From positions 30,767 through 94,766 of the forward strand of contig CAVTWD010000015.1 in the NCBI GenBank assembly GCA_963738325.1: 64,000 nt of DNA, in the 5' to 3' direction. The DNA is from an uncultured Acidimicrobiales bacterium. Its GTDB lineage: Bacteria; Actinomycetota; Acidimicrobiia; Acidimicrobiales; Ilumatobacteraceae. The notes below the pieces were generated by a model that had not been told where the DNA came from, made no database searches, and worked only from the letters and a program-made list of their open reading frames with translations. Shown piece after piece: positions 1 to 58,324 of the stretch (positions are counted from its first letter, which is position 1; each line of letters opens with the position of its first letter). The position numbers and the translations under genes were made by a program.

Positions 1-442
1 GCCGCCGCACACGCCGCATACGGGGCGCTGCGTGCGCCCGGTTGGTCACCAGCGGTGTGCAGCGGCTCGCAATGCCGGCTGCAGATGACGCCGTCGTCGC
101 GAAATGGCCACGGGCCCCGTCGGCCGTCACCACACCCGAGCCGGGACAAGGTCGACGTGGGTGGTTCGACCCCAGGCCACGGCGTCGGCGACAGACGGCG
201 CGGACCTCGCCGGCGGTCGCCGACGTTCTCCCACCCGGACCAAGGCTCAGGTCGGTCGGATCGTCGCCGCTGGACCACCAAGCTCGGGAGCCGGTGACAT
301 CTTCGCTCGAGCCGTTTCGTGTCGCCGCGAGTCCTTCGATGCCGGCCTGTGCCGGCGAGTCCTGTGCACCTGGTGTGCACTTAGCGCGAGCGAGGGGTCC
401 GCTTCGGGACGCCTCTATCGGTCTTGACCTGGGCTGTCCCGG

Positions 443-515
443 TGGGCGATACGGGCCTCGATCCCATGACCTCCACGGTGTGAACGTGGCGCTCTTCCAA
501 CTGAGCTAATCGCCC
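443..515 (-). tRNA. tRNA-Val (anticodon CAC)
   Basis: The reverse complement reads GGGCGATTAGCTCAGTTGGAAGAGCGCCACGTTCACACCGTGGAGGTCATGGGATCGAGGCCCGTATCGCCCA. It has a 7-bp acceptor stem, D-arm, anticodon loop TTCACAC (anticodon CAC), T-arm and discriminator A. CCA is not encoded. Confidence 0.6.
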
Positions 516-578
516 TCGACAGCCGGTGAACCCTATCGGGGGCTGCGACGGAGCCGCCAGCACCGCGCCCAAACCGTT

Positions 579-1186
579 CTAACCGAGCCGGACGCACACG
601 GTCGACGACCCGGCCGGATCCTCGAGGCGAGTGAGCGTCGGTGGGCACGATGCGCCAACGGGTGGCAGCTCCACAACGACGCCATCATGGGTACTGTCGC
701 AGCCGATTTCTTTGACGAACCCGCTGGTGACCTGAACGCAAGAGCCCGGTTGGAGCACGCCGTCGATGCCCGTGCCTTTGCCTCCATGATTGTTCGCGGC
801 ATAGGCGGTGAAGACGAAGATCACGGCGAGGGCGACGAGTATCAGCAACCAGGGCAGGGGCAGCAGACCTCGGCGGGCATGGCCCGGCACCGGGACGCCC
901 ATGGCCGCCTCGTCATCGGGATCGGCCACGAAGAGTTCGTCTTCGTCGGACGACTGCCCCGCCTCCGCGCCGGACCGCCGCCTCGCCGCCGTGTCGGCTG
1001 ACCGGAGCGACGCGTCGTAGATGGCGCGGCGAGCTGGGTCGCGCAGCACGTACCACGCCGAGTTGAGGACGGCCATCGCGTCGAGATCCACCGAGCCCGT
1101 GTCGGGGTGCAAGCGACGGGCCAGCCGTCGATAGGCGGCGTGGATCTCCGCCTCCGACGCGCCCGCCGTGACGCCGAGGGTCTCAT
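579..1186 (-). CDS. DnaJ/J-domain membrane protein; start uncertain (frameshift near the 5' end)
   Basis: Contains the J-domain HYETLGV...EIHAAYRRLARRLHPD with the HPD motif, followed by one hydrophobic TM segment. A good SD+ATG (AGGAGccactATG at 1186) is one nucleotide out of frame with the J-domain frame, suggesting an indel right after the start codon. Confidence 0.5.
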
Positions 1187-1209
1187 AGTGGCTCCTGATG
1201 CCCGTGACG

Positions 1210-1788
1210 CTAATCCTGAAGGTCGTCGACCGTGCCGCCCGCGCGCCAGTATTCGCCGCCAGCCCGATCGAGGAAGCCCTCGTCGACGAGGTAGCGGCGC
1301 AGGGCGGCTGTGTCGGCATACCGGCGGCCGAGCACCAGGTTGACCATCGCCTCGCTGTAGCGATGCCCCGGCTCGAATTCCTGCGCCAGGAGGTCGAGCA
1401 CCACGAGCCGCTTCGAACGGGCGGCCGGGATGGCCGTGAGGCGGCCGTCGACGACGAAGGCCCGGAGCACCTTGGCCACCTCCGGAGGCCGATCGTCCTC
1501 GGCTCCCGGGTCGCGGCGCGAAGCGGCGGCCCGAGCGGCGGACTGGAACGCCGATGCCTGGATGACGAGCGCTCCCTCACCGTTCCGGACCACGAGCCCG
1601 GCGTCCACGAGACGGGCGAGGGCCTTACCCGACCTCGCCCCGTCGAGCCGCGCGTCGAGCGAGATCTGATTCGGTGTCGATGCCCCGAGCACCAACGCGG
1701 CGAACACTCGGCGCCGACCTTCGTCGGCCAGCAGCCCGGCGAGGGCGACAGCGTCGAGGCGCGGCTCGGGAGGCGCCGCGTCGGTCAA
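1210..1788 (-). CDS. DUF2087-like putative transcriptional regulator
   Basis: The C-terminal region (KVLRAFVVDGRLTAIPAARSKRLVVLDLLAQEFEPGHRYSEAMVNLVL) resembles DUF2087. A TTG start overlaps the stop of the upstream dehydrogenase (TTGA). Confidence 0.5.
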   Translation of the reverse strand: MTDAAPPEPRLDAVALAGLLADEGRRRVFAALVLGASTPNQISLDARLDGARSGKALARLVDAGLVVRNGEGALVIQASAFQSAARAAASRRDPGAEDDRPPEVAKVLRAFVVDGRLTAIPAARSKRLVVLDLLAQEFEPGHRYSEAMVNLVLGRRYADTAALRRYLVDEGFLDRAGGEYWRAGGTVDDLQD

Positions 1789-2711
1789 TAGCCGAGCTCG
1801 GGGTCGACCCGCCCGATGAGCTCCTCCCCCTGCCCGTACCGGCGCACATTGCTGGTGATGCGCTCGGCGAGGAGGGGGGCGGCCATCTCCGGCGTGTTGC
1901 CGACGTGCGGCGTGATGATGCAGTTCGGCAACGACCAAAGGGGATGGCCGTCGGGGAGGGGTTCGGGATCGGTGACGTCGAGGCCGGCGCCACCGATGGC
2001 GCCGTCCTTCAACACCTTCACGAGATCGTCGGTGACGATGTGGCGGCCACGGGCCACGTTGACGAGCCACGCGTGCGGCTCCATGAGCGCCAGTTCGCTG
2101 GCGCTCATGAGCCCCTCCGTGTCAGGAGTGAGGGCCAGAGCCAGGATGACGAGGTCGGCTCCGGGGAGCGCGTCGGGCAGCCGGTCGCTCCCGATGACGA
2201 CGTCGGCGCCTTCCATCTCCTGCACCCGGTTGCGCACGACCGTCACGTGAGCGCGGAAGGGCTGGAGCAGGCGCAGTAGCGACTCGGCGATGCCGCCCCC
2301 GCCGACGATGGTGACCCGGGCACCGAGCAGGTTCGTGCCCTGCGGTGGCTCCCACCGCTCGGCTCGGGTGTAGATGCCGAGCCCCCGCAAGCCGGCCAAC
2401 CCCAGCGCGAGGGCGAGCTCGGCGACCGGCTCGGCGTACACGCCCTTGCCACAGGTCCACAACCGCTCGTCGTCCACGAGGTGGGCGAAGGCCTCGACGC
2501 CCGCCCACGGCAGTTGAACCCACCGGACCTTCGGTGACGCCGCGAGCAGTTGCTCGAGTCCGGACACGTCGTGCGGGCTTCCCCACACCACGGCCTCGGC
2601 CTTGTCGACCCCCACGAGCTGCCCACCACCTTGGGTGACGGCCTCGGCCAGCCAGTCCGGAACCCCCTCGGGCGCCAGGGCGATGAGCGGGGCCTCGGGA
2701 CTTGGCGGCAT
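1785..2711 (-). CDS. D-isomer-specific 2-hydroxyacid dehydrogenase (NAD-binding)
   Basis: Carries the family signature NVARGxxVD...GLDVTxPEPLP...ITPHxG and is about 308 aa. Confidence 0.8.
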   Translation of the reverse strand: MPPSPEAPLIALAPEGVPDWLAEAVTQGGGQLVGVDKAEAVVWGSPHDVSGLEQLLAASPKVRWVQLPWAGVEAFAHLVDDERLWTCGKGVYAEPVAELALALGLAGLRGLGIYTRAERWEPPQGTNLLGARVTIVGGGGIAESLLRLLQPFRAHVTVVRNRVQEMEGADVVIGSDRLPDALPGADLVILALALTPDTEGLMSASELALMEPHAWLVNVARGRHIVTDDLVKVLKDGAIGGAGLDVTDPEPLPDGHPLWSLPNCIITPHVGNTPEMAAPLLAERITSNVRRYGQGEELIGRVDPELGY

Positions 2712-13322: not shown

Positions 13323-14612
13323 ATGTATAGGGCCACTGTGATTGGCATCGTCGCGACCATGACGGCGCTGGCACTGGCAGGATGCGGGAGCAAGGCAGCC
13401 ACCAGCGCGCCAGCAGCCACCAGCGCGCCAGCAGCCAGCACGACAACGGCACCTGCCAGCACGACAACGGCACCTGCCAGCACGACTGCAAGGTCTGCGG
13501 CCGCGCCATCCACGACCACGATGCCCCCGGTCATGAGCGCGTCCTCGGTGGCGCAGTTCGTGACGACCTTCTACAACCAGTATCTGGCCTGCCAGGGAAC
13601 GAACGCTGTTACCTGTTCCAGCAGCGTCGTGAACAAGTACGGCACGCCGAAACTCGACTCGTATTACACACCCGCAGCGGGCTACGAATATGACAGCGAC
13701 CCCATCCTGTGCGCCCAGGACTCCCCGACAGGGGTCCAGGTGTCAGGCGTGACGACGACGCCGAACACCGCTTCGGGAACGGTGAACGAGGAGGGCTTCG
13801 GCTCGGCGAACACGACCACTTTCGTAGTCGTCAACCAATCGGGCACGTTGAAAATCGACACCATCACCTGCAATCCGCCGTTGATGCCAGACAAGCAGCT
13901 CACGGGTGGGGGCGGTACCGGATCCACGGGCGGCTCGGCAACAAGCCTCGACGGCACGTACACGATCTCCCTGCCGCCGGGCGACGACAGCTGCGGCTCC
14001 CCGTCCTTGAGCGCGGAGACCCTCACCGTCAGCGGCACGACGGCGAGCATCACTGCGGTCGGCGGGCAAACCCCATTTCACGGCACAGCAACCACCGCAG
14101 GATCGACGTTCTCGATGCACATCACGAACGGCATCACCGGCCCCGGTGCCATCGTCATCGACCTCACCGGCAGCATCGAGCCGAACGGCGCTCTGTCGGG
14201 TCAGAGTGTGAACGGCGGCGTCTACCCGGGTGGCACGAACGGCTTCGGCTGTAGCTTTCCATTCACCGCCACCCGCACCTCGGCGAAAGCGGGACCACCG
14301 GCGAGCAGCGCGCCCGTCACCACTCCCTCAGCCGGTAGCGCCGCCCCCTGCACCCGAGCCGCGATCACGGCCGCCGCCCGGGCCGCCGCCGGAGCGGACT
14401 TCGACGGCCTGGCCGGCGGCACGGCGGCCTTCGGCTGCTCGGGCCGGTTCGCCTACACGTTCGCCACCGTCGGGTCGGGTAACACCGAGGTCGACGTCAC
14501 GATGCTGTTCATGGCGACCAACGGCACCTGGCAGTCCGCCGACCGGGGCATCTACTGCCAAGACGGCTCGGTACCTCGGGAGATCTATCGGCCCGCGTGC
14601 GAAACCCAATGA
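13323..14612 (+). CDS. lipoprotein of unknown function with an N-terminal Ala/Thr/Ser-Pro low-complexity linker
   Basis: Signal peptide with lipobox LALAGC, tandem ATSAPAA/STTTAPA repeats, and a Cys-containing C-terminal domain. A GGCGGGGA x3 repeat sits immediately upstream of the start. Confidence 0.7.
   Translation: MYRATVIGIVATMTALALAGCGSKAATSAPAATSAPAASTTTAPASTTTAPASTTARSAAAPSTTTMPPVMSASSVAQFVTTFYNQYLACQGTNAVTCSSSVVNKYGTPKLDSYYTPAAGYEYDSDPILCAQDSPTGVQVSGVTTTPNTASGTVNEEGFGSANTTTFVVVNQSGTLKIDTITCNPPLMPDKQLTGGGGTGSTGGSATSLDGTYTISLPPGDDSCGSPSLSAETLTVSGTTASITAVGGQTPFHGTATTAGSTFSMHITNGITGPGAIVIDLTGSIEPNGALSGQSVNGGVYPGGTNGFGCSFPFTATRTSAKAGPPASSAPVTTPSAGSAAPCTRAAITAAARAAAGADFDGLAGGTAAFGCSGRFAYTFATVGSGNTEVDVTMLFMATNGTWQSADRGIYCQDGSVPREIYRPACETQ
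13399..13500. repeat. short tandem direct repeats inside the lipoprotein linker (2 x about 21 bp and 2 x about 21 bp)
   Basis: ccaccagcgcgccagcagc occurs twice and cagcacgacaacggcacctgc occurs twice. Confidence 0.7.
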
Positions 14613-15193: not shown

Positions 15194-15799
15194 TCACGGG
15201 CGCAGGGCGGCGTGCACGTACACGAAGAGCTCGCGCCGCAGGCGGCGCAGCGACGCGATTGACGCGTCGAGCCCGACGACTCGTTGCGCTTCCAGCTCCG
15301 TGGCGGCCCCGACCACCGTGGCATAGAGCAGCAGCACCGTGAGGCGGGGATCCGCCTGGCGCACCGTGCCGGCCGCCATCTCGTCGTCGAGGAACGCCCC
15401 CGCCCGGTCCACCAGCGGTTGCAGCCCCTGCTCCAACCGGCCGGCCGGTCCCGCCCCCAGCCGGTTCACCTCGCGCAGCAGCCCGAGTACCGCAGGCCGG
15501 CGCACCCCGAAGCGGAAGACGGCGCCGAGCACCAGCTCGACCCGGGCCAGGCCGTCGCCACCACGGGCCAGAGCGCCCTCTATCGCCTCCGCCAACGCCG
15601 CGGCCACGTGGTCGATCACCGCGTCGAGCAAACTCTCCTTCGAGTCGAACCAGTAGAGGATGGTCTGCTTCGTGATACCGAGCTCGCCCGCCAACGCGTC
15701 GAGCGACGTGGCTTCGTAGCCGCGCGTACCGAAAGCGGAGAGAGCGGCGTCGACGATCCGCCGGGCGGTCTCGGACGGTCGATGGTCTGCCCGGGGCAC
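15194..15799 (-). CDS. TetR/AcrR-family transcriptional regulator
   Basis: N-terminal HTH (ARRIVDAALSAFGTRGYEATSLDALAGELGITKQTILYWFDSKESLL). Divergent from the FAR gene. Confidence 0.85.
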   Translation of the reverse strand: MPRADHRPSETARRIVDAALSAFGTRGYEATSLDALAGELGITKQTILYWFDSKESLLDAVIDHVAAALAEAIEGALARGGDGLARVELVLGAVFRFGVRRPAVLGLLREVNRLGAGPAGRLEQGLQPLVDRAGAFLDDEMAAGTVRQADPRLTVLLLYATVVGAATELEAQRVVGLDASIASLRRLRRELFVYVHAALRP

Positions 15800-15800
15800 T

Positions 15801-15812
15801 TACCATATGGTA
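15801..15812. promoter_or_regulatory. perfect 12-bp palindrome TACCATATGGTA between the divergent TetR and FAR starts (candidate TetR operator)
   Basis: The palindrome lies in the 24-bp divergent intergenic gap. Confidence 0.5.
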
Positions 15813-15823
15813 GACAATCGAGC

Positions 15824-18173
15824 GTGATCGCCGAGACCCTCGCCGGTTCGCGCATCGCCATCACCGGAGGGACGGGGTTCGTGGGGACGGCGCTCGTCGA
15901 GCGACTGCTCCGCGACGTGCCGCGTTGCGAGGTCGTGCTCCTCGTACGCGCCGGCCGCCGCTCCAGCGCCGCGCAGCGGGTGCAGCGCGAGATCCTGAAG
16001 AACGACGCCTTCGACCGGCTGCGTCGGGAGGTCGGCCGGGACGGCTTCGCGGCCCTCGCCGAGCGCCAGGTGCACGTGATCGCGGGCGACGTCGGCACCG
16101 ACGGCCTAGGCCTCGACGACGCCGATCGCGCCATGCTGGCCAGCTGCAGCCGCGTCATCCACTCGGCCGCCACGGTCGCGTTCGACGCGCCCCTCGACGG
16201 TGCCGTCGAGGTCAACCTGCTCGGACCGTCACGCCTCGCGCTCCTCCTCCACGAGCTCGGCGTCAGCCCCCACCTCATCTCGGTGTCGACGTGCTACGTC
16301 GCCGGCAACCGTCGAGGGAAGGCTCCCGAGTCACCGGTGAGTGACGGCCCATTCGATCTGGGAGTGGACTGGCGCAAGGAGGTCGACGCGGCGCGGCGGG
16401 CACGGGCCGACACCGAGGCCGAGAGCCGCCAGCCCGAACGCCTGGCCGAGCTCCACAAGCGGGCGCGGGCCGAGCTGGGCGCGGCCGGTTCGCCGGCGCT
16501 CGCGGCCAAGACCGAGCAGCTGCGCGGGCGCTGGGTGGCCGATCGAATGGTCGAGCTCGGCCGAGCCCGAGCCGTCAGCCTGGGTTGGCCCGATGCCTAC
16601 GCGTACACGAAAGCCCTCGGCGAAGGGGCGCTGCTCGAGAACGCCGGGCCGGTGCCCGTCACGATCGTGCGGCCGTCGATCATCGAGTCATCGCTGGCCG
16701 AGCCGCGACCGGGCTGGATCCGCGGCTTCCGCATGGCCGAGCCGATCATCGTCTCCTATGCCCGAGGCCTGCTGAAGCAGTTCCCCGGCGTGCCGGAAGG
16801 AATCGTCGACGTGATCCCCGTCGACCTCGTCGTCGGCGCCATCTGCGCGGCGGCTGCGCTGGGCCCGGAGTCGGCACCCCCGATCGTGCAGGTGGCATCC
16901 GGCTCCCGCAACCCGCTGAAGTACCGCTTCCTCGTCGACACCGTGCGCCACTGGTTCGGTGAGCATCCGGTGTACGACAGCATCGGTCAGCCCATCGCGG
17001 TCGCCGACTTCGACTACTCCGCTCGCCACGAGGTCAAGGGCCAGCTCGAGCGGGCCAAGGGAATGATGTCGCGCGCCGAGAAGGTCCTCCACGCGTTGCC
17101 GTTGCGGGGCACGCAGGCCGCCTTCGCGGCCCGACTCGAGGAGCGGCGCAGCGAGGTGGAGCGGGCCCTGTCCTACGTCGAGCTGTACGGCAGCTACGCG
17201 GAGTGCGAGGCCGTCTACTCCGTCGACCAGCTGCTCGCGATGCAAGACGAGCTCAGTGCCGAGGATCTCGTTGCGTTCTCCTTCGACCCCGCCGCCATCG
17301 ACTGGGCGCACTACATCCGCGACGTCCACCTCCCGAGCGTCATCGAGCACGCCCGCGTGAAGACAACACCCACGCGCGGCCGCGCCGACCATCGCCGCGA
17401 TCGGCTGCGGGCCCAGGTCCTGTCACCGGAGCGTCACGTGGCCGCCTTCGACCTCGAGAACACGTTGATCGCCTCGAACGTCGTCGAGAGCTACTCGTGG
17501 TTGGCCACCCGACGCCTCCCCACGCAGGACCGGGTCCGCCTTGCCCTCAAGACGCTGGCCGAGGCCCCCGGGCTGCTCGCCTTGGACCGCCGCGACCGCG
17601 GCGACTTCCTCCGGGCGTTCTACCGACGCTACGAGGGCGCCCCGGTCGCCCAGATCGACGAGGACGCCACCGAGCTGTTCAGCCAACTCATCCTGGCCAA
17701 GAGCTTCCCCGCCGCCATCCGTCGAGTGCGCGAGCATCGCGCCGCCGGGCATCGCACCGTGTTGATCACCGGCGCGCTCGACTTCGCCGTCCGTTCCCTC
17801 CAACCGCTGTTCGACGAGATCATCGCCGCGCGACCTGAGCGTCCGTGACGACGGGACCTACTCGGGCGAGCTGACCGACGTGTCCCCCACGGGCGAGACG
17901 CGTGCGCAACTCCTCGCCGAGTACTGCGAAGCCGAGGGCCTGCGCTTGGACGAGTCGGTCGCGTATGCCGATTCGACGTCCGATCTGCCCCTGCTCGAGG
18001 CCGTGGGCTTTCCGGTGGCCGTGAACCCCGAGACCCGCTTGGCCACCCTTGCCCGGAAGCGGGGGTGGCTCGTGGAGGACTGGCGGAAGCCGCCCGGCTC
18101 CTCAGGGCCCCGGTTGCCGATCGGACCGGCCTGGCGCGCGCCGCGGGTCACGGAGCTGCGGGGCGCCCGATGA
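15824..18173 (+). pseudogene. fatty acyl-CoA reductase (thioester-reductase/NAD-binding) fused to a C-terminal HAD-IB hydrolase domain; -1 frameshift near 17830
   Basis: N-terminal region has ITGGTGFVG...YAYTK, an FAR/TE-reductase fold. The C-terminal part has HAD motif FDLENTLI and ...ADSTSDLPLLEAVGFPVAVNP. The HAD tail continues in another frame (17880..18173). Confidence 0.7.
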
Positions 18174-19355
18174 AAGCGCTTCGCTTCGAGCGCAGCATGG
18201 CCCGCTTCGCCGCGGCGCGTGTCGCCGGAGCCCTGCGACCGGGAGGCGGCGCCCTCGTCGGCCCGCTCGAGCTCGCCGATGTGGATCCACCCGAGCGCCC
18301 AGGGCCGGGCTGGGTCCGACTGCGCCCGCGACTCTCCGGCATCTGCGGCTCGGATCTCTCCACCATTGACGGCGCCGCCAGCCGCTACTTCTCCCCCATC
18401 GTCAGCTTTCCCTTCGTCCCGGGACACGAGGTCGTGGCCGACACCGACGACGACGAGCGCGGTCGTGCTCGAACCGGTGCTCGGTTGCGTGGCCCGTGGT
18501 CTCCATCCGGTGTGTCCCGCGTGTGCGGCCGGTCACCTCGGGAACTGTGAGCGCTTGGCCTTCGGTGACATCTCCCCCGGCCTGCAGACGGGCTTCTGCT
18601 GCGACACGGGCGGCGGCTGGGGCACGTTCATGGTCGCGCACGACAGCCAGCTGCACCGGGTGGCCGACGACATGACCGACGAGGCCGCCGTGATGATCGA
18701 GCCCGCCGCCTGCGCAGTGCACGCCGCGCTGAGCGGCGGCGTTCGCGACGGCGACACCGTGGTCGTACTAGGCGCAGGGACCTTGGGCTTGTTGACGGTG
18801 GCCGCCCTTCGGGCCTTCACCGGCGTCGGCACCCTCGTGGTGGGGGCCCGGTACGCCCATCAGCGGGGTTTCGCTGACCAGTTCGGGGCGGACCTCGTGA
18901 AAGAGCCGGACAAGCTCGGGCGGCTCGTGCGGCGCATGAGCGCGTCAATGGCATACGGCAACCAGCTGACCGGCGGGGCCGAGGTCGTCGTCGACTGCGT
19001 GGGCACGAGCGAGTCGATCGCGCAGTGCCTGACGCTCGTGAAGCCGCGTGGGCGGGTCGTGCTGGTCGGCATGCCGGGCTCGGTACGCCTCGACCTCACG
19101 ACGCTCTGGCACCGTGAGACCGAGCTCGCCGGTGCCTACGCCTACGGCACCGAGACCCTCGCCGACGGCTCGCGGCCGCGGACGTTCGAGCTCGCCTTCG
19201 AGCTGGTGCGGCGGGCCGGTCTCGACTGCCTGGTGTCGGCCACCTATCACCTGGCCGACTACCGGGAAGCGATCGAGCACGCGGCCACGGCCGGTCGCCG
19301 CGGTGCAGTCAAGATCGCCTTTGACCTCCGCCCTGAGAAGGAGCGAAACCGATGA
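18170..19355 (+). pseudogene. zinc-dependent alcohol dehydrogenase (MDR family) with a +1 frameshift near 18467
   Basis: Carries GICGSDL and GHEVV in the first frame and the Rossmann-fold remainder in the second. The start overlaps the upstream stop (ATGA). Confidence 0.7.
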
Positions 19356-19581
19356 GCCGGGCGCGCGTCACGGCCCAGCGTGGGGCAGGGGCCCCACGCT
19401 CGGGAGGAGGCTGGGGTTGGGGCCCCAGCCGGGCCGACCAACAAGGAGCGAAACCGATGAGCCGGGCGCGCGTCACGGCCCGGCGTGGGGCAGGGGCCCC
19501 ACGCTCGGGAGGAGGCTGGGGTGGGGGCCCCAGCCGGGCCGACCAACACGGAGCGAAACCGATGAAGGAGGGCGCGCGCTG
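19338..19581. repeat. 105-bp tandem direct repeat (2 full units plus a partial third), each with an internal 9-bp-stem hairpin
   Basis: Each unit begins aaggagcgaaaccgATGagccgggcgcgcgtcacggcc... and is repeated at 19338, 19443 and 19548 (period 105). The hairpin is agcgtgggg-cagggg-ccccacgct. Confidence 0.85.
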
Positions 19582-19582
19582 A
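19352..19582 (+). CDS. upstream ORF created by the tandem repeat (35-aa peptide repeated twice, then MKEGAR), coupled to the downstream gene
   Basis: Each repeat carries an AAGGAG SD 7 nt before an ATG. The period of 105 is 35 codons, so the frame is kept. The stop overlaps the LarA-like ATG (TGATG). Confidence 0.25.
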   Translation: MSRARVTAQRGAGAPRSGGGWGWGPSRADQQGAKPMSRARVTARRGAGAPRSGGGWGGGPSRADQHGAKPMKEGAR

Positions 19583-21168
19583 TGCCACGGCCGGGTTTCG
19601 TCCTCGAGGTGGACCGCTCCACGCCGCCGTCACTCTTCTGGCACGGGGAGGGCTTTCGCCTCGAGCAGCTACCACCGGGGCGGTCACGAGTCGTCTACGG
19701 GCCCGAGCCGCTCGAACCCCTCGACGACATCGACGGCGCCATCCGGCACGCGCTCCACCATCCACTCGACCACGACCCTCTGCCCTCGCTCCTCTTTCCC
19801 GGCATGCGGCTGACCATCGCCTTCGATGACATCAGCCTGCCGCTGCCGCCGATGCGGCGCCCCGACATCCGCCAGCGGGTGATCGAAGCCGTGCTCGACC
19901 TCGCCGCCGCGGCCGGCGTGGATGACGTCCACATCATCGCCGCCCTCGCCCTTCATCGTCGGATGACCGAAGCAGAGCTGCGCCATGCCGTCGGGGATCG
20001 TGTCTACGACACGTTCGCGCCACGCGGGCTCCTCTACAACCACGACGCCGAGGATCCCGACGGCATGACCGAGCTGGGCTGGACGGCCCACAACGAGCTC
20101 GTCGAGATCAACCGGCGGGCCGCGGAATCGGACCTGCTCGTCTACGTGAACATCAACCTGGTCGCCATGGACGGAGGCTGGAAGTCGACCGCCACCGGCC
20201 TGGCGAGCTACCGCAGCCTCCGGTACCACCACAACGTCCGCACCATGCAGCACAGCCGGAGCTTCATGGACCAGGAACGGTCCGAGCTCCATACGTCGAA
20301 CCGGCGCATGGGGAAGGTGATCCGCAACGCCGGGGTGAAGGTCTTCCAGATCGAGACGACCCTGAACACCGACACGTTCCCGTCCCCCTTCGAGTTCCTG
20401 GCCAAGAGAGAGTGGGAGTGGTCGGCGAAGGACCGGGGTCTCTACCTCGCCAGCTCGGCCTCTCTGAGGCGCTTGCCCAGCCGTCTGAAGCGCGACATCT
20501 TCCACGGCATCCGCTCGCCTCATCAGATGACGAGTGTCCAAGCCGGCGACGTGGACGCCGTTCATCGGATGACGACGGCCAATGTGTACCGCCAGCAGCT
20601 CGTGGCCGTGGAGGGCCAGACGGACATCCTCACCATGGGGATCCCCTTCGTCTGCCCGTACAACGTCAACTCGATCATGAACCCGATCCTCGTGATGTGC
20701 ACGGGGCTCGGCTACTACTTCAACCTCTACCGCGGCCGCCCCCTCGTCCGTGAGGGCGGCGTCGTGATCATGACCCACCCCACCCCGTGGGAATTCCATC
20801 CCGTCCATCATCCGAGCTACATCGACTTCTTCGAGCAGGTGCTGGCGGAGACGACCGACCCCGCGGAGATCGAGCAGCGTTTCGAGAAGTCCTTCGCCGA
20901 CGACGAGTGGTACCGACACCTCTACCGCACCTCGTACGCCTACCACGGCGTGCACCCCTTCTACATGTGGTACTGGGGAGCGCACGCGCTGCAGCACGTC
21001 GGACGGGTGATCGTGGTCGGCGGTAAACCGAAGACCGTTCGACGGTTGGGGTTCGTGCCGGCGTCGACGCTCGACGACGCCCTCGAGCTGGCCGGTGACG
21101 TCGTCGGCCGCCAGCCCACGATCACGCATCTGCACTTGCCGCCGCTGCTGCTGGCGGACGTGAGTTGA
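19582..21168 (+). CDS. LarA-like (DUF2088) lactate-racemase-family protein
   Basis: About 529 aa. Has a GGWKS motif resembling the LarA lysine that tethers its cofactor. Domain order is family-consistent. No larB/larC/larE nearby. Confidence 0.55.
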   Translation: MPRPGFVLEVDRSTPPSLFWHGEGFRLEQLPPGRSRVVYGPEPLEPLDDIDGAIRHALHHPLDHDPLPSLLFPGMRLTIAFDDISLPLPPMRRPDIRQRVIEAVLDLAAAAGVDDVHIIAALALHRRMTEAELRHAVGDRVYDTFAPRGLLYNHDAEDPDGMTELGWTAHNELVEINRRAAESDLLVYVNINLVAMDGGWKSTATGLASYRSLRYHHNVRTMQHSRSFMDQERSELHTSNRRMGKVIRNAGVKVFQIETTLNTDTFPSPFEFLAKREWEWSAKDRGLYLASSASLRRLPSRLKRDIFHGIRSPHQMTSVQAGDVDAVHRMTTANVYRQQLVAVEGQTDILTMGIPFVCPYNVNSIMNPILVMCTGLGYYFNLYRGRPLVREGGVVIMTHPTPWEFHPVHHPSYIDFFEQVLAETTDPAEIEQRFEKSFADDEWYRHLYRTSYAYHGVHPFYMWYWGAHALQHVGRVIVVGGKPKTVRRLGFVPASTLDDALELAGDVVGRQPTITHLHLPPLLLADVS

Positions 21169-21178
21169 GGATGCCGCC

Positions 21179-22201
21179 GTGACCGGAGCGGCTCCGTTGA
21201 AGGCGAAGCATCTCGCCGACCGCGCCGTCGGGTCGGCCCGGCGCACCCGGATCCGCGTGGGCCGCGTCACCACCGCTTTCGGGTTCCCGTGGCGGGCGCC
21301 GACCGTGCCCCGCGGCGTCGAGGTGATACGAGAGCCACGGAAGGTCGGTGCAGACTTCGACACGGACTGGGCTCGCAGACCCCCGGCCCGGCTGGCGCGC
21401 GCCGCCATCGTGGAGGGTCCTCTGCGCCTTGCCGTGAAGGCCATCGCCGCCCCTGAGATCCAAGGCCTCGACCGGCTGGCCGACCTCCGGCGACAACACG
21501 ACCGCGGCGGCGATGCTCGTCCCGTCATCTTCGCAGCGAACCATGTGAGCCATCTCGACGCGCCGATGATGATCACGTCGATTCCCGAACCGTGGCGTCA
21601 CCGCCTGATCGTCGCCGCCGCGGCGGACTACTTCTTCGCCACCCGGGTCAAGGGGACGGCCAGCGCGCTGGCCCTCGGCGCCATCCCGATCGATCGCTCG
21701 CGCGTCAACCGCCGTTCGGCCGACCTGGCGTCGTCACTCATGGGCGACGGTTGGAGCCTGTTGATCTTCCCGGAAGGGGGCCGCTCGCCCGACGGTTGGG
21801 GCCAGCCTTTCCGCGGCGGGGCCGCCTTCCTGGCCGTGCGCACCGGGGTCGCGGTCGTGCCCGTGCACCTCGACGGCACGGGGTCCATCCTCGGCAAGGG
21901 GATGAAGCGGCCCAAGCCGGGTCGCACCATCGTGACCTTCGGCGCGCCGCTGCGGCCTGAGGACGGCGAGGATGCTCGGCGGCTCGGTGACCGGATCGAG
22001 CGGGCGGTGGCCGAGCTGGCCGACGAAGCGGCGACGGACTGGTACTCGGCCCGCTTGCGTGCTGGCCGGGCCGAGACCCCGTCGCTCGGGGGTCCGGAGG
22101 CCACCGGCTGGCGGCGCGCCTGGGCGCTCGGCGAGCGGCGAGCCCGTGGTCGGGCCGGCCAACGCCGCCGGCAGCGCCGCCGTTGGCCCAAGCTCGGCTA
22201 G
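21179..22201 (+). CDS. lysophospholipid (1-acyl-sn-glycerol-3-phosphate) acyltransferase, PlsC family
   Basis: Carries the NHVSHLD (HX4D) and FPEGGRS motifs. Confidence 0.75.
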   Translation: MTGAAPLKAKHLADRAVGSARRTRIRVGRVTTAFGFPWRAPTVPRGVEVIREPRKVGADFDTDWARRPPARLARAAIVEGPLRLAVKAIAAPEIQGLDRLADLRRQHDRGGDARPVIFAANHVSHLDAPMMITSIPEPWRHRLIVAAAADYFFATRVKGTASALALGAIPIDRSRVNRRSADLASSLMGDGWSLLIFPEGGRSPDGWGQPFRGGAAFLAVRTGVAVVPVHLDGTGSILGKGMKRPKPGRTIVTFGAPLRPEDGEDARRLGDRIERAVAELADEAATDWYSARLRAGRAETPSLGGPEATGWRRAWALGERRARGRAGQRRRQRRRWPKLG

Positions 22202-22820: not shown

Positions 22821-23089
22821 GGCGACCCTGCAGCCTAGGAGCCGTTGCCGCGACGGCGGCCGCGCTCCCCTCCCGAGGCCGGGCTCCCCGCTCGGGGCCG
22901 GGCTCCCCGCTCGGGGCCGGGCTCCCCGGATCGGTCGCTCACCGGCGGAACTTGAACCTGAGGGTGCTGTCCACGGCCCTTCCCGGTTCAACTTCAGCAG
23001 CAGGCGGGCTACTCGGCGGCAACGATGGTGAACCGCAAGGAGAGCGGGCACGTACAACAGTCGTGCGCGTCGACGACCGGGGAGGCACG

Positions 23090-50552: not shown

Positions 50553-51071
50553 TCAGGCGTCGTCGGGCTCGGGCCGCCGACGGGTCCACACCAGCGCAAC
50601 CGCACCGAGGCCGACGAGGGCGACACCAACCCCGCCGAGCAACGCGGTGTCGCCGCCCGTGGCCGGCAACCGAGCGGGCAGCGCCTTCACGGTCGCCTTG
50701 GACGGCGACTTCGGCACGTGCGCGTGGGGATGGGCCGCGGGGGCGGCGGCCGGGGTCGTGGGCACCGCCGTCGTCGGCGTCGTCACGACGGTCGGCTCGG
50801 TGGGCGGCGTCGTCACCTCGGTGGGCGGCGTCGTGACCTCGGTGGGCGGCGTGGTCGGCTCGGTCGCCTCGGTGGGCGTCGTCGCCTCCGTCGGCGTCGT
50901 CACCTCGGTCTCCAGTGGGTTGGCCTCGGTGGGCGCGGTCTGCGCCCAGGCGCTGGTGGCCAAGGCCCCGACGCCGGCGACACCGAGCGTCGCCGCCACC
51001 ATCATCTGAACTCCGGCTCGAACCAGCCTCCGCCGGCCGGTCCGGCCGTGTTGCTCGCCCGCCTGCTCCAT
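50553..51071 (-). CDS. LPXTG-type cell-wall-anchored surface protein with TTPPTEV repeats
   Basis: Signal peptide, Thr/Pro/Glu repeats, then LPATGG followed by a hydrophobic stretch and RRRPEPDDA. Confidence 0.6.
   Translation of the reverse strand: MEQAGEQHGRTGRRRLVRAGVQMMVAATLGVAGVGALATSAWAQTAPTEANPLETEVTTPTEATTPTEATEPTTPPTEVTTPPTEVTTPPTEPTVVTTPTTAVPTTPAAAPAAHPHAHVPKSPSKATVKALPARLPATGGDTALLGGVGVALVGLGAVALVWTRRRPEPDDA
50740..50930. repeat. tandem repeats of about 27 bp encoding TTPPTEV units
   Basis: ggcggcgtcgtgacctcggtgggc-like units repeated about 5 times. Confidence 0.6.
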
Positions 51072-56143: not shown

Positions 56144-58324
56144 GTGCCACCGATGCGGTTGCTCGGGCGAGTCCTCGGCTCGGCGTGGCTGGTGGCGTTG
56201 GTCGCGACCTCAGCCGCGGGCGCCGCAGTGGCAGACCAGCTCCAGGTGGTCGACGTCAACGCCTCGGCCGCGCCCGGTGCCCGCATCGTGGTGGCCACGC
56301 CCGCCCAGTTCAGCGGCCGCACGCTCACCTCGGCAGAGTTCCTGGCCACCCAAGGCGGCACCACCATCCCCGTCCAGGCGACACCGATCCCACCGGCCTC
56401 ACGCCGGGTGGCGTTGGTGATCGACAACGGCGACGGCATCGATCAGCACACCTTCGACCTGGAGCGGGGCGCGGCGACGGAGTTGATCCGCCGGCTCGAC
56501 AACGGGACGTGGGTCGCCGTGCTCGCTTCGGTGACCCCCTTCGGCGTCCAGGCCCCCACCCAGGACCGCGCCAAGGCCGTCGCCACGCTCACCACCTTGA
56601 AGCGGGGGGGCCTGCGCCGCCTCGACGCCGCCGCCGGCGTGGCGGCCTCGCTCGTGCAGCCTGGGACTCCGATCACGAAACGGGTGGTGGTGTTCTCGGG
56701 CGCGGCTGGAGGCGGCCTCGACGGCGTGGCCGCCGTACCTGGCGGGCGACTCGACGTCGTCTCGGTGGCGGGCGGGGTGTCGCCGACGATTCCGCTCGCC
56801 GGCATCCGGGTGCTCACCGCAGGGACGAATCTCACCGCCACCGTCGACGGCATCGCCAGCCAGCTCACCGGGCAGTACGAGCTCGCTCTCCAGACCCGCC
56901 CACCGAGCACACAGCCCATCGACCTCACGCTGGTCGCCGATGGCCGGACGTTCAGCGCCCGTGTCGATGTGCCCGCGCTGACGGCCACCACGGTCGTCCC
57001 GCCGACGAGCGCCCCAACCGCGCCCGCGCCGACAACTGTCGCGACGCACGACGACCTCGTCTCGTCGCCCGGGTTCCTCGTGTTCCTCGCGGTCGATGCG
57101 GCCGCCATTGCCTTGTTGCTGCTCTCCCTCGCGCTGCGCCGGCACCACCGCAAGAGCCGTCACCGTCCGGTGCGCAGCCGGCCCGCCCCGCCGACACGGG
57201 AGGAGGAACCTGCGCCTGTCCTCGCCGCCGAGGGAGGGGCGGTCGAGGCGCCTGAGTCCGCCCCGCCCGGGCGAGAGGAGACCACCCGGGCCGAGCCCGA
57301 GCGCGAGGTGAAGCCGGCAAGGGCAAGTGGAGCGGTGGCGGGGCTGTCTTCGCCGCTCGAAGTCCTCGCCAGTGTGGCGACCGTCGCCGTGGCGCAACAG
57401 GAGGCTCCCGCGGAACCCGAGGAAGAGCCGGTCGCCGAACCCGAGGAAGAGCCGGCGCCCGAAGCGGAGGACGAACCAGTCTGCGAGCCCGAGCAAGGGC
57501 GCGTCGCAGAGGAACTCGCCTCGGCGCCGGAGCCCGAAGAAGAGTCGGCGGAGCTCGAGCCCGAAGAAGAGACGGCGCCTGTAGCGGAAGAAGCACCGGT
57601 CTCCGCGCCCGAAGAGCCTGTCGCCGAGGAAGTCGCGGCGGAGCCCGAGCCCGAGGAAGAGCCCGCCGCCGAGGCGGAGGAAGCGACCGTCCCAGAGCCC
57701 GAGCAAGAGCCCGCCGCACAAGCGGAGCAAGTCACGTCGGCCTCCGAGCCGGACGAAGCGATCGCCCCTGAGCCCGAGGAGGAGCCCGCCCTCGAGCCCG
57801 AGCCCGTCGAGGCGGTCGCGACGGCGATCGGCCTGGCGGCCGCGACCGCGCCGGCCGAGGCAACCGCGCCCGTCGATGACGACGTCCAGCTCGAAGGCCA
57901 TGTCCTCGTCGCGTGGCGGCGGGATGATGCCACCGAAACCCGGCCGCGCCGACGCCGCACCTCCCTGGTCGACCTCGCCCTCGTCGACGATGGCTGGCAC
58001 CACGAGACCGACATCGACACCGACAGCGAGCCCGTCGACGCCATCGAACCGGACGACGTCGCCCTCACCGAGCGGGCCCACCCCATCCATTCGACGATTG
58101 CGCGCCACGACCCAGACAGCGACCTGAGGGCCGAGCCCTCCGTCCCTCCGACCCCCGGCACCCGCCCCCCGGGACGCCCGGCGGTGATCCGGCGCTACCT
58201 GATCGGAGCCGTGCCGTCGCCGCCCGACCACAACGGCAGCTACGCGGAGTGGCCTCGGGCATTCTCGGGCGTGGCCGACACCACCACCGAGCCGCGGAGG
58301 CCGTCCGGTTCCACTCGCTCGTGA
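56144..58324 (+). CDS. secreted/membrane protein: N-terminal VWA-like domain, a central TM helix, and a long acidic Pro/Glu/Ala repeat tail
   Basis: Signal peptide, then ...RRVALVIDNGDGID..., then a TM (FLVFLAVDAAAIALLLLSLAL), then EPEEEPAAE-type repeats over about 200 aa. Confidence 0.55.
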   Translation: MPPMRLLGRVLGSAWLVALVATSAAGAAVADQLQVVDVNASAAPGARIVVATPAQFSGRTLTSAEFLATQGGTTIPVQATPIPPASRRVALVIDNGDGIDQHTFDLERGAATELIRRLDNGTWVAVLASVTPFGVQAPTQDRAKAVATLTTLKRGGLRRLDAAAGVAASLVQPGTPITKRVVVFSGAAGGGLDGVAAVPGGRLDVVSVAGGVSPTIPLAGIRVLTAGTNLTATVDGIASQLTGQYELALQTRPPSTQPIDLTLVADGRTFSARVDVPALTATTVVPPTSAPTAPAPTTVATHDDLVSSPGFLVFLAVDAAAIALLLLSLALRRHHRKSRHRPVRSRPAPPTREEEPAPVLAAEGGAVEAPESAPPGREETTRAEPEREVKPARASGAVAGLSSPLEVLASVATVAVAQQEAPAEPEEEPVAEPEEEPAPEAEDEPVCEPEQGRVAEELASAPEPEEESAELEPEEETAPVAEEAPVSAPEEPVAEEVAAEPEPEEEPAAEAEEATVPEPEQEPAAQAEQVTSASEPDEAIAPEPEEEPALEPEPVEAVATAIGLAAATAPAEATAPVDDDVQLEGHVLVAWRRDDATETRPRRRRTSLVDLALVDDGWHHETDIDTDSEPVDAIEPDDVALTERAHPIHSTIARHDPDSDLRAEPSVPPTPGTRPPGRPAVIRRYLIGAVPSPPDHNGSYAEWPRAFSGVADTTTEPRRPSGSTRS
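57330..57800. repeat. imperfect tandem repeats (about 18-27 bp, gagcccgaggaagagccg-like) encoding the acidic EPEEEP tail
   Basis: Repeated at least 12 times with variation. Confidence 0.6.

Follow-up and report, generated by a model that had tools for sequence, protein, structure and literature searches.

Mycobacterial interspersed repetitive units (MIRUs; Supply et al. 1997) are described, in the sections of PMC12548453 and PMC3184786 that deal with them, as tandem repeats of 40 to 100 bp located between operon genes, with G+C-rich inverted repeats and open reading frames (ORFs) whose ends overlap the neighboring genes. According to the same sections, their insertion is believed to occur at start codons, with −4 coupling, and to disturb expression little. 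The −4, −1, and −8 spacing motifs are described in PMC12548453, where the two models of translational coupling (RNA unfolding and reinitiation) and the avoidance of Rho polarity on untranslated RNA are also summarized. Short ORFs that deliver ribosomes to a downstream gene are known as natural coupled upstream ORFs, as synthetic bicistronic designs, and as nonsense-peptide ORFs (PMC12548453, section 11; PMC13255528). Repetitive extragenic palindromes (REPs) and bacterial interspersed mosaic elements (BIMEs) place stable G+C-rich stem-loops between operon genes; REPs are untranslated, measure 21 to 65 nt, and occur many times in a genome. Palindromic insertions can also survive inside functional protein genes by keeping the reading frame open, as do the Rickettsia palindromic elements, which form a dispersed family. 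Here, we analyzed a tandem repeat with a 105-nt unit that lies between a Zn-dependent alcohol dehydrogenase (ADH) gene and a LarA-like gene in 64,000 nt of contig CAVTWD010000015.1 (the whole of this 64-kb stretch is referred to below as the window). Judging by the source names of homologs and related loci, the host probably belongs to the Acidimicrobiia/Acidimicrobiales, known from metagenome-assembled genomes.

We consider it probable that the repeat is a frame-preserving duplication within a nonsense relay ORF at a translationally coupled junction, in which an insert became joined to the 18-nt 3′ end of the ADH gene with its Shine-Dalgarno (SD) sequence and ATGA stop/start overlap. What appears to be selected is translation of the spacer in the right frame, not the encoded peptide.

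RESULTS

Tandem Repeats Finder (TRF) placed the array at 19338-19578 as the top-scoring tandem repeat of the window (period 105, 2.3 copies, 95% matches, no indels, score 438), and a repeat search of the window gave 98% identity between unit 1 (19338-19442, plus strand) and unit 2 (19443-19547, plus strand). Each unit of 105 nt, or 35 codons, is made up of the 18-nt ADH 3′ end (an AAGGAG SD sequence, 8 nt, and ATGA) followed by an 87-nt core. This core occurred exactly twice in the window when up to three mismatches were allowed and not once in 100 dinucleotide shuffles. Just two substitutions separate the units (A/G at 19377/19482 and T/G at 19418/19523, with G in unit 2 at both). The clear part of a third copy comprises only 18 nt (19548-19565, plus strand; ACGGAGCGAAACCGATGA, one mismatch), and the 17 nt that follow it (AGGAGGGCGCGCGCTGA) appear to be another copy of this ADH 3′ end, one that is older and has diverged. 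These results bear out an earlier note on this DNA, which had described a 105-bp unit of exactly 35 codons, present twice and then truncated, that starts inside the last codons of the Zn-ADH gene and brings an SD sequence and an ATG with each copy: the 18-nt ADH end belongs to the unit, and the ATGs (19352, 19457, and 19562) each stand 8 nt downstream of AAGGAG or CGGAG.

These three ATGs are nested in one frame and define a bridging ORF of 76 codons (19352-19582, plus strand) that spans the whole 226-nt spacer between ADH and LarA-like. Its first ATG overlaps the ADH stop codon (TGA, 19353-19355) as ATGA (−4), and the last base of its own TGA (19580-19582) is also the first of the LarA-like ATG (19582-19584), which gives TGATG (−1). 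A 76-amino-acid ORF that ends MKEGAR and stops on the LarA-like start, as the earlier note had it, is thus what the sequence reads. TGAs in the ADH frame recur at 19458 and 19563. The overlaps that mark a coupled junction, NTGA or TGATG, were present at both ends of the bridging ORF and also between ADH and the upstream gene, which encodes a fatty acyl-CoA reductase/HAD fusion (FAR-HAD). The final 21 nt before LarA-like (ATGAAGGAGGGCGCGCGCTGA) form a mini-ORF encoding MKEGAR (19562-19582, plus strand) and hold the LarA-like SD sequence, AAGGAGG (19565-19571). They seem to correspond to the equivalent mini-ORFs of 5 to 7 codons in relatives (loci L001 and L005), which probably represent the state before insertion, and they also resemble an old, diverged form of the 18-nt ADH end.

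G+C content by codon position was 0.78/0.79/0.75 in the bridging ORF versus 0.75/0.41/0.92 in LarA-like. No homolog of the bridging peptide was found among 5.8 billion proteins, and no Pfam match was obtained. The bridging ORF thus shows neither the coding signature nor the homologs by which a small-protein gene is recognized. Two other readings of this segment were rejected. One is an N-terminal extension of LarA-like through the repeat: the LarA-like frame stays open as far upstream as 19048, with TTG at 19417 as its one start codon inside the repeat, but nearly all homologs start MPRPGF. Because homologs are 527 to 531 amino acids long in almost all of the 120 matches listed (one has 536), we take ATG 19582 as the true start of the 528-residue LarA-like protein. 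The other is a minus-strand ORF of 168 amino acids (19259-19765), which is antisense to two conserved genes.

Each unit is predicted to fold at −63 kcal/mol (z = −3.75 versus shuffles) into a three-way junction, which in unit 1 occupies 19371-19436 (plus strand) and recurs 105 nt downstream in unit 2. A closing stem of 6 pairs (19371-19376/19431-19436) encloses hairpin 1 (19377-19400), with 10 pairs (19377-19386/19391-19400), and hairpin 2 (19409-19430), with 9 pairs (19409-19417/19422-19430). The two hairpins are alike (TGGGG..GGCCCCA, 31 nt apart), and within the window their motif is confined to the array. Both substitutions between the units are structure neutral, one turning an A-U into a G-U pair and the other changing a loop base. 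Folding of the leader RNA, proposed in the earlier note, thus recovered the hairpin that the note had assigned to each copy and corrected its count: the stem taken to have 9 bp has 10 pairs, and each unit adds a second hairpin of 9 pairs and the closing stem.

In its layout the array comes closest to the MIRUs. It shares with them direct tandem repeats within an operon that are oriented like the flanking genes (here, period 105, 2.3 copies, plus strand), internal inverted repeats rich in G+C, an ORF across the repeats that overlaps the flanking stop and start (ATGA at 19352-19355 and TGATG at 19580-19584), insertion within an operon read as having little effect on downstream expression, and copy number variation among related strains, seen here for a different, 15-nt unit in relatives. 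The array differs from the MIRUs in its host (Acidimicrobiia, not Mycobacterium), in its unit of 105 nt, in having no evident tetranucleotide target duplication, with 18 nt of the ADH 3′ end inside the repeat instead, and in the failure of its unit to appear at a second locus in the sequence searched (see below). The repeat may thus be called MIRU-like in layout and logic, a likeness that does not imply membership.

With ribosome-delivery ORFs the locus shares a short ORF, without coding value, that encloses the SD sequence of the gene it precedes and terminates on that gene's start codon, and both the MKEGAR mini-ORF and the mini-ORFs of L001 and L005 have exactly this layout. Unlike such ORFs, the bridging ORF is also coupled at its 5′ end to an upstream gene and so bridges two genes rather than leading one. 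It appears to have grown to 76 codons by insertion and duplication, and the function we would assign to it derives from comparison. The stable G+C-rich stem-loops between operon genes, together with long perfect hairpins of relatives at the same site, recall REPs and BIMEs. In contrast to REPs, the window unit forms a 66-nt three-way junction, would be translated in frame, and had no other copy in the searched sequence. What sets the locus apart from the Rickettsia palindromic elements is its host frame, here that of a nonsense bridging ORF.

In 144 Acidimicrobiia loci, tblastn and frame extension served to locate the ADH stop and LarA-like start. Direct overlap was the commonest state (83 of 144 loci), with a gap of −1 (TGATG) in 47 loci and of −4 (NTGA) in 36. 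The gap was −8 in 3 loci, 0 to 9 nt in 17, and at least 10 nt in 41. We defined a strict relay as an ORF or ORF chain that spans the gap with every stop-to-start distance between −4 and +3. By this definition, 31 of 40 loci with gaps of at least 10 nt carried a strict relay, mostly as one ORF with RTGA on the ADH stop and TGATG on the LarA-like start. Expected numbers among the 40 were 4.5 when whole gaps were shuffled, 17.1 when the last 2 nt were kept, and 3.0 when 1 or 2 nt were deleted; 31 relays were reached in 0 of 200,000 simulations. The closest relative, L167, was added after this count and also fits. Gap length was 1 mod 3, the value expected for a single bridging ORF, in 29 of the 41 loci (P = 1.1e-6). 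The 35 gaps of at least 25 nt fell into 29 unrelated sequence clusters, and 22 of these were 1 mod 3 (P = 3.4e-6). Since indel errors in relatives break relay frames and do not create them, these statistics are conservative.

The inserts themselves vary in kind: long perfect hairpins occupy the junction in L061, L069, L020, L124, L138, and L022, and other inserts are tandem repeats. Bridging ORFs of 20 to 100 codons had a flat G+C content by codon position (0.73/0.70/0.75, against 0.75/0.41/0.92 in LarA-like), and therefore it is the frame, not the peptide, that is conserved. Among the explanations offered in the earlier note was a translational-coupling device, and the relatives argue for it, in that unrelated inserts at the same junction are almost always spanned by an ORF from the ADH stop to the LarA-like start.

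Gaps longer than the 226 nt of the window were seen only in two loci that hold a real SnoaL-like gene (gaps of 400 and 460 nt). This gene (PF12680), present between ADH and LarA-like in L064 and L113, has 154 and 134 codons, a coding G+C signature, and ATGA/GTGA...TGATG overlaps. An origin of the bridging ORFs as SnoaL-like remnants was mostly rejected, and the window ORF is not one; the sole demonstrable remnant is in L038, where 21 codons of the SnoaL-like C terminus are kept as a bridging ORF. In L115, part of the insert (2501-140..2501; gap nt 60 to 114) shares ∼86% identity with the DNA that directly follows the acyltransferase gene in L002, L003, and L085 and is possibly a small dispersed element. 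This resemblance was the only hint of dispersed copies among the junction inserts of the relatives.

The operon order FAR-HAD, Zn-ADH, LarA-like, and PlsC-type acyltransferase is conserved in relatives, and the frame pattern extends to the other two junctions. Between FAR-HAD and ADH, the overlap is ATGA in 91 of 118 loci; among the 18 gaps that are expanded, 16 have a length of 1 mod 3 and 16 carry strict relay chains. At the LarA/acyltransferase junction, a length of 1 mod 3 was found for 37 of 58 expanded gaps, and relays were present in 28 of the 58 (5 to 14 expected). A GC3-based gene finder called 38 genes in the window, too few same-strand junctions for a window-wide test of the frame rule.

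The clearest junction tandem repeats in relatives have periods of 3n (15, 30, and 39 nt). A 15-nt period is present in L002 (3.5 to 4 copies) and L003 (2.1 copies, both by TRF), with about two copies in L085 and one in L086 by eye; a 30-nt period is present in L103, 39-nt periods are present in L115 and L069, and L085 has periods of both 15 and 30 nt. Periods of 3n − 1 also occur (14 nt in L051 and 17 nt in L013 and L047), with ATGA in every unit; the FAR-HAD/ADH junction of L051 is a chain of three 5-codon mini-ORFs that overlap stop on start. A few weak, low-scoring junction repeats have other periods. In L115, a 39-nt (13-codon) segment was duplicated independently; like the window unit, it includes the cgATGA stop/start. 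A further in-frame insert, near-perfectly palindromic (cgttgggcgacttcgcg ... cgcgaactcgcccaacg), lies within the ADH coding region of L002 (3605-3720) and L003 (3600-3715), as well as of L085 and L086. ADH was called at 415 amino acids in L002, L085, and L086 versus 395 in L084, the extra length being this insert; within the insert of L003, a stop codon shortens the called protein to 340 amino acids. This insert recalls palindromic elements that survive by staying in frame.

Outside the array, no copy of the unit was found in the window by a mismatch-tolerant scan or by blastn-short and nhmmer searches with the 87-nt core (array masked); within the source genome this search covered the 64-kb window only, too little sequence to exclude a MIRU-like density. 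In ∼1 Mb from 167 related loci, blastn-short and nhmmer gave chance matches of 12 to 16 nt only. An exact 24-mer of the unit had no match in 185,579 species-representative genomes, the unit had none in plasmid and phage collections, and the repeat had none in Rfam, where searches at E values up to 10 returned just subthreshold noise outside it. Even relatives with 84 to 86% LarA identity lack the unit. In L087 (84%; gagaaggagcgcaaccgcTGATG), the same EKERNR C terminus is followed by an ADH stop placed directly on the LarA start; L084 (85%) and L168 have a direct TGATG overlap; L001 (85%) has a 7-codon mini-ORF (ATGAagctcaggagagatcgcTGATG); and in L167 (86%) the junction holds an unrelated insert of 175 nt, which an ORF of 59 codons bridges as ATGA...TGATG.

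Taken with the 98% identity of the copies, these searches support the earlier suggestion of a recent duplication: the unit appears to be young, lineage specific, and locally duplicated in tandem, and the hairpin-rich insert itself is most likely a passenger that came from slippage or insertion. Within the sequence searched, they lend no support to the REP-like mobile repeat that was suggested as well. The earlier note had also held that a unit present in single copy at this locus in all relatives and nowhere else would be a recent local artifact of no regulatory meaning. The sequence is indeed local and young, but that argument overlooks what is conserved, namely, the frame-preserving architecture.

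All four genes of the operon are on the plus strand. FAR-HAD (15782-18173, start approximate; Pfam NAD_binding_4 and HAD) is the first, and its stop overlaps the ADH start as ATGA at 18170-18173. Zn-ADH (18170-19355; Pfam ADH_N and ADH_zinc_N) has the C terminus EKERNR. LarA-like (19582-21168; Lar_N/DUF2088, PF09861, E = 9.5e-36) is followed by the PlsC-type acyltransferase gene (21179-22201; Pfam Acyltransferase), the last of the conserved operon. The stop of LarA-like and the start of the acyltransferase gene are separated by 10 nt (TTGAggatgccgccGTGA, window 21166-21181), possibly bridged by a 5-codon mini-ORF with −4 overlaps at both ends. The same 10-nt gap class was seen in 9 relatives.

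Other repeats in the window lie apart from this operon. At 22858-22928, a 19-nt unit (GGCCGGGCTCCCCGCTCGG) is present in 3.7 copies in the upstream region of a LysM-type gene on the minus strand. Several other tandem repeats, perfect or nearly so (13395-13486, 50791-50909, and 57409-57806), have periods that are multiples of three (18, 21, 24, and 120 nt) and are probably inside coding regions, such as that of an acidic PEPEEE-type repeat protein near 57.4 to 57.8 kb. The longest inverted repeat pair of the window (48 nt, 31146-31193/48385-48432, 88% complementary, 17 kb apart) could belong to a dispersed element or delimit a mobile segment.

DISCUSSION

We propose the following course of events for the relay. 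Ribosomes that end ADH at UGA 19353-19355, or that load at AAGGAG 19338-19343, would start at AUG 19352. Translation of the 76 nonsense codons would melt the two structures of about −63 kcal/mol and keep the 226-nt spacer covered by ribosomes. Termination at UGA 19580-19582, atop the LarA-like AUG and 10 nt after the SD sequence AAGGAGG, would then couple LarA-like initiation to upstream translation. The duplication would be tolerated because its period is 35 codons, a multiple of three with no stop in the frame of the bridging ORF; every copy would also add an in-frame SD sequence and AUG, plus a UGA in the ADH frame that could reset stray ribosomes. Such a mechanism fits RNA unfolding, reinitiation, and avoidance of Rho polarity.

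Several observations weigh against this account. Translation of the bridging ORF and the dependence of LarA-like on it are both matters that we infer from sequence, and LarA-like has a strong SD sequence of its own and may not need coupling. In the window, an open in-frame ORF would arise by chance at about 1/3 (frame) times ∼0.5 (no stop), so that the window alone is weak evidence. Strict relays were missing from 9 of the 40 expanded junctions, which makes the constraint less than absolute, and the relatives fall short of full phylogenetic independence, even though they carry unrelated inserts. Finally, in tblastn comparisons with the orthologs in L084, FAR-HAD near 17834 (frame change located at 17833/17835) and ADH near 18461 each shift by +1. 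If these frameshifts are real, ribosomes would never reach the ADH stop, coupling to ADH would be lost, and the operon may be decaying.

Both frameshift sites look like an extra base (...gcgcgaCCtgag... and ...cgcGGtcgtg...), and they are either assembly indels or the marks of two pseudogenes adjoining an intact LarA-like gene. The sister assemblies L002 and L003 encode an identical LarA-like protein. Over 9.4 kb, 133 mismatches and 64 gap openings separate them, and their gene calls are broken up in different ways, which indicates that indel-rich, long-read-type assemblies are present in the data set. Because L002 and L003 are so rich in indels, we think that the window frameshifts are long-read consensus errors as well, a view argued from those assemblies rather than proven for the window. 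LarA-like and the acyltransferase gene are intact in the window.

We regard as unlikely a neutral explanation, in which slippage recently duplicated part of a spacer without any role and the long ORF simply follows from 75% G+C and a period that happens to be a multiple of 3. It would gain most in plausibility if this lineage carried the upstream genes as pseudogenes, as the shifts in ADH and FAR-HAD would allow. The absence of the unit from all relatives and from every collection searched accords with it, as do the SD sequence of LarA-like and the finding that 52% of shuffles of the window gap that keep its last 2 nt still form a relay. However, neutrality does not account for a frame rule that holds across 29 unrelated insert families and at three operon junctions, nor for the periods of the clearest junction repeats, which are 3n, or 3n − 1 (14 and 17 nt) with ATGA in each unit. 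LarA-like and the acyltransferase gene are, moreover, intact, and the frameshifts resemble the assembly noise of the sister assemblies.

It is quite unlikely that the RNA structure, rather than the frame, is what matters. On this hypothesis, the paired three-way junctions would be REP/BIME-like, acting as a 3′-exonuclease barrier that stabilizes FAR-HAD/ADH, as an RNase processing site, or as a brake on LarA-like relative to ADH, and the ORF would be secondary. The relatives' hairpins at the same junction could be cited in its favor, but they are unrelated in sequence and absent from most loci, where direct overlap prevails, so that no structure is conserved. The unit does fold far better than its shuffles, and both substitutions between the copies preserve the fold; two changes are nevertheless too few for covariation, and the locus showed no Rfam match and no terminator-like tail. 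In addition, the hairpins all lie within ORFs in the translated frame, where ribosomes would unfold them.

We consider it very unlikely that the extra copy was created by misassembly or polishing of the metagenome contig. The two substitutions between copies and the terminal partial copy are typical of real tandem duplications, errors of the indel type do not make 105-nt duplications, and comparable in-frame copy number variation exists among related assemblies (the 15-nt unit of L002, L003, L085, and L086). Set against this, probable indel errors lie nearby, related long-read assemblies are rich in indels, and the exact LarA-like protein is known from one contig only. There is next to no chance that the ORF is a leader peptide or attenuator whose translation controls a terminator/antiterminator switch before LarA-like. 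In favor of this reading, which the earlier note had ventured, is only that a gene is directly preceded by a short ORF with stable hairpins. Against it, the site lies within the operon, between two of its genes, and not in a 5′ leader, and most relatives have no spacer there; a promoter and terminator scan at the locus found nothing, including any terminator-like hairpin with a T-run between 19000 and 19800; the two units fold alike and not as mutually exclusive hairpins; and the peptide has no homolog, no coding signature, and no conserved or regulatory codon run.

Returning to the frame-preserving relay, we see an even chance that it reflects a rule in the Acidimicrobiia and perhaps in high-G+C Actinomycetota, by which inserts between two coupled operon genes, be they hairpin elements, slippage repeats, or gene remnants, would survive only if covered by stop-on-start nonsense ORFs. 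Mini-ORFs of 5 to 7 codons would be the landing pads that grow to 76 or more codons, and repeat periods would be 3n, or 3n − 1 where every unit carries an ATGA. On its own, the repeat is a minor duplication of recent date; it matters as the most extreme noncoding example of a pattern replicated in relatives. It carries a warning for annotation, in that ORFs of this kind should be taken neither for genes nor for ordinary intergenic DNA. The pattern offers comparative evidence for selection on spacer translation, whether through reinitiation, RNA unfolding, or polarity protection, extends the MIRU-type idea beyond mycobacteria with no evident mobile family, and supplies ready-made natural constructs for testing how translational coupling works. 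If the rule is true, these junctions would amount to a natural, evolutionarily replicated demonstration that intercistronic spacers require uninterrupted ribosome traffic, and they would point to many ORFs, absent from current annotation, whose translation yields no meaningful product.

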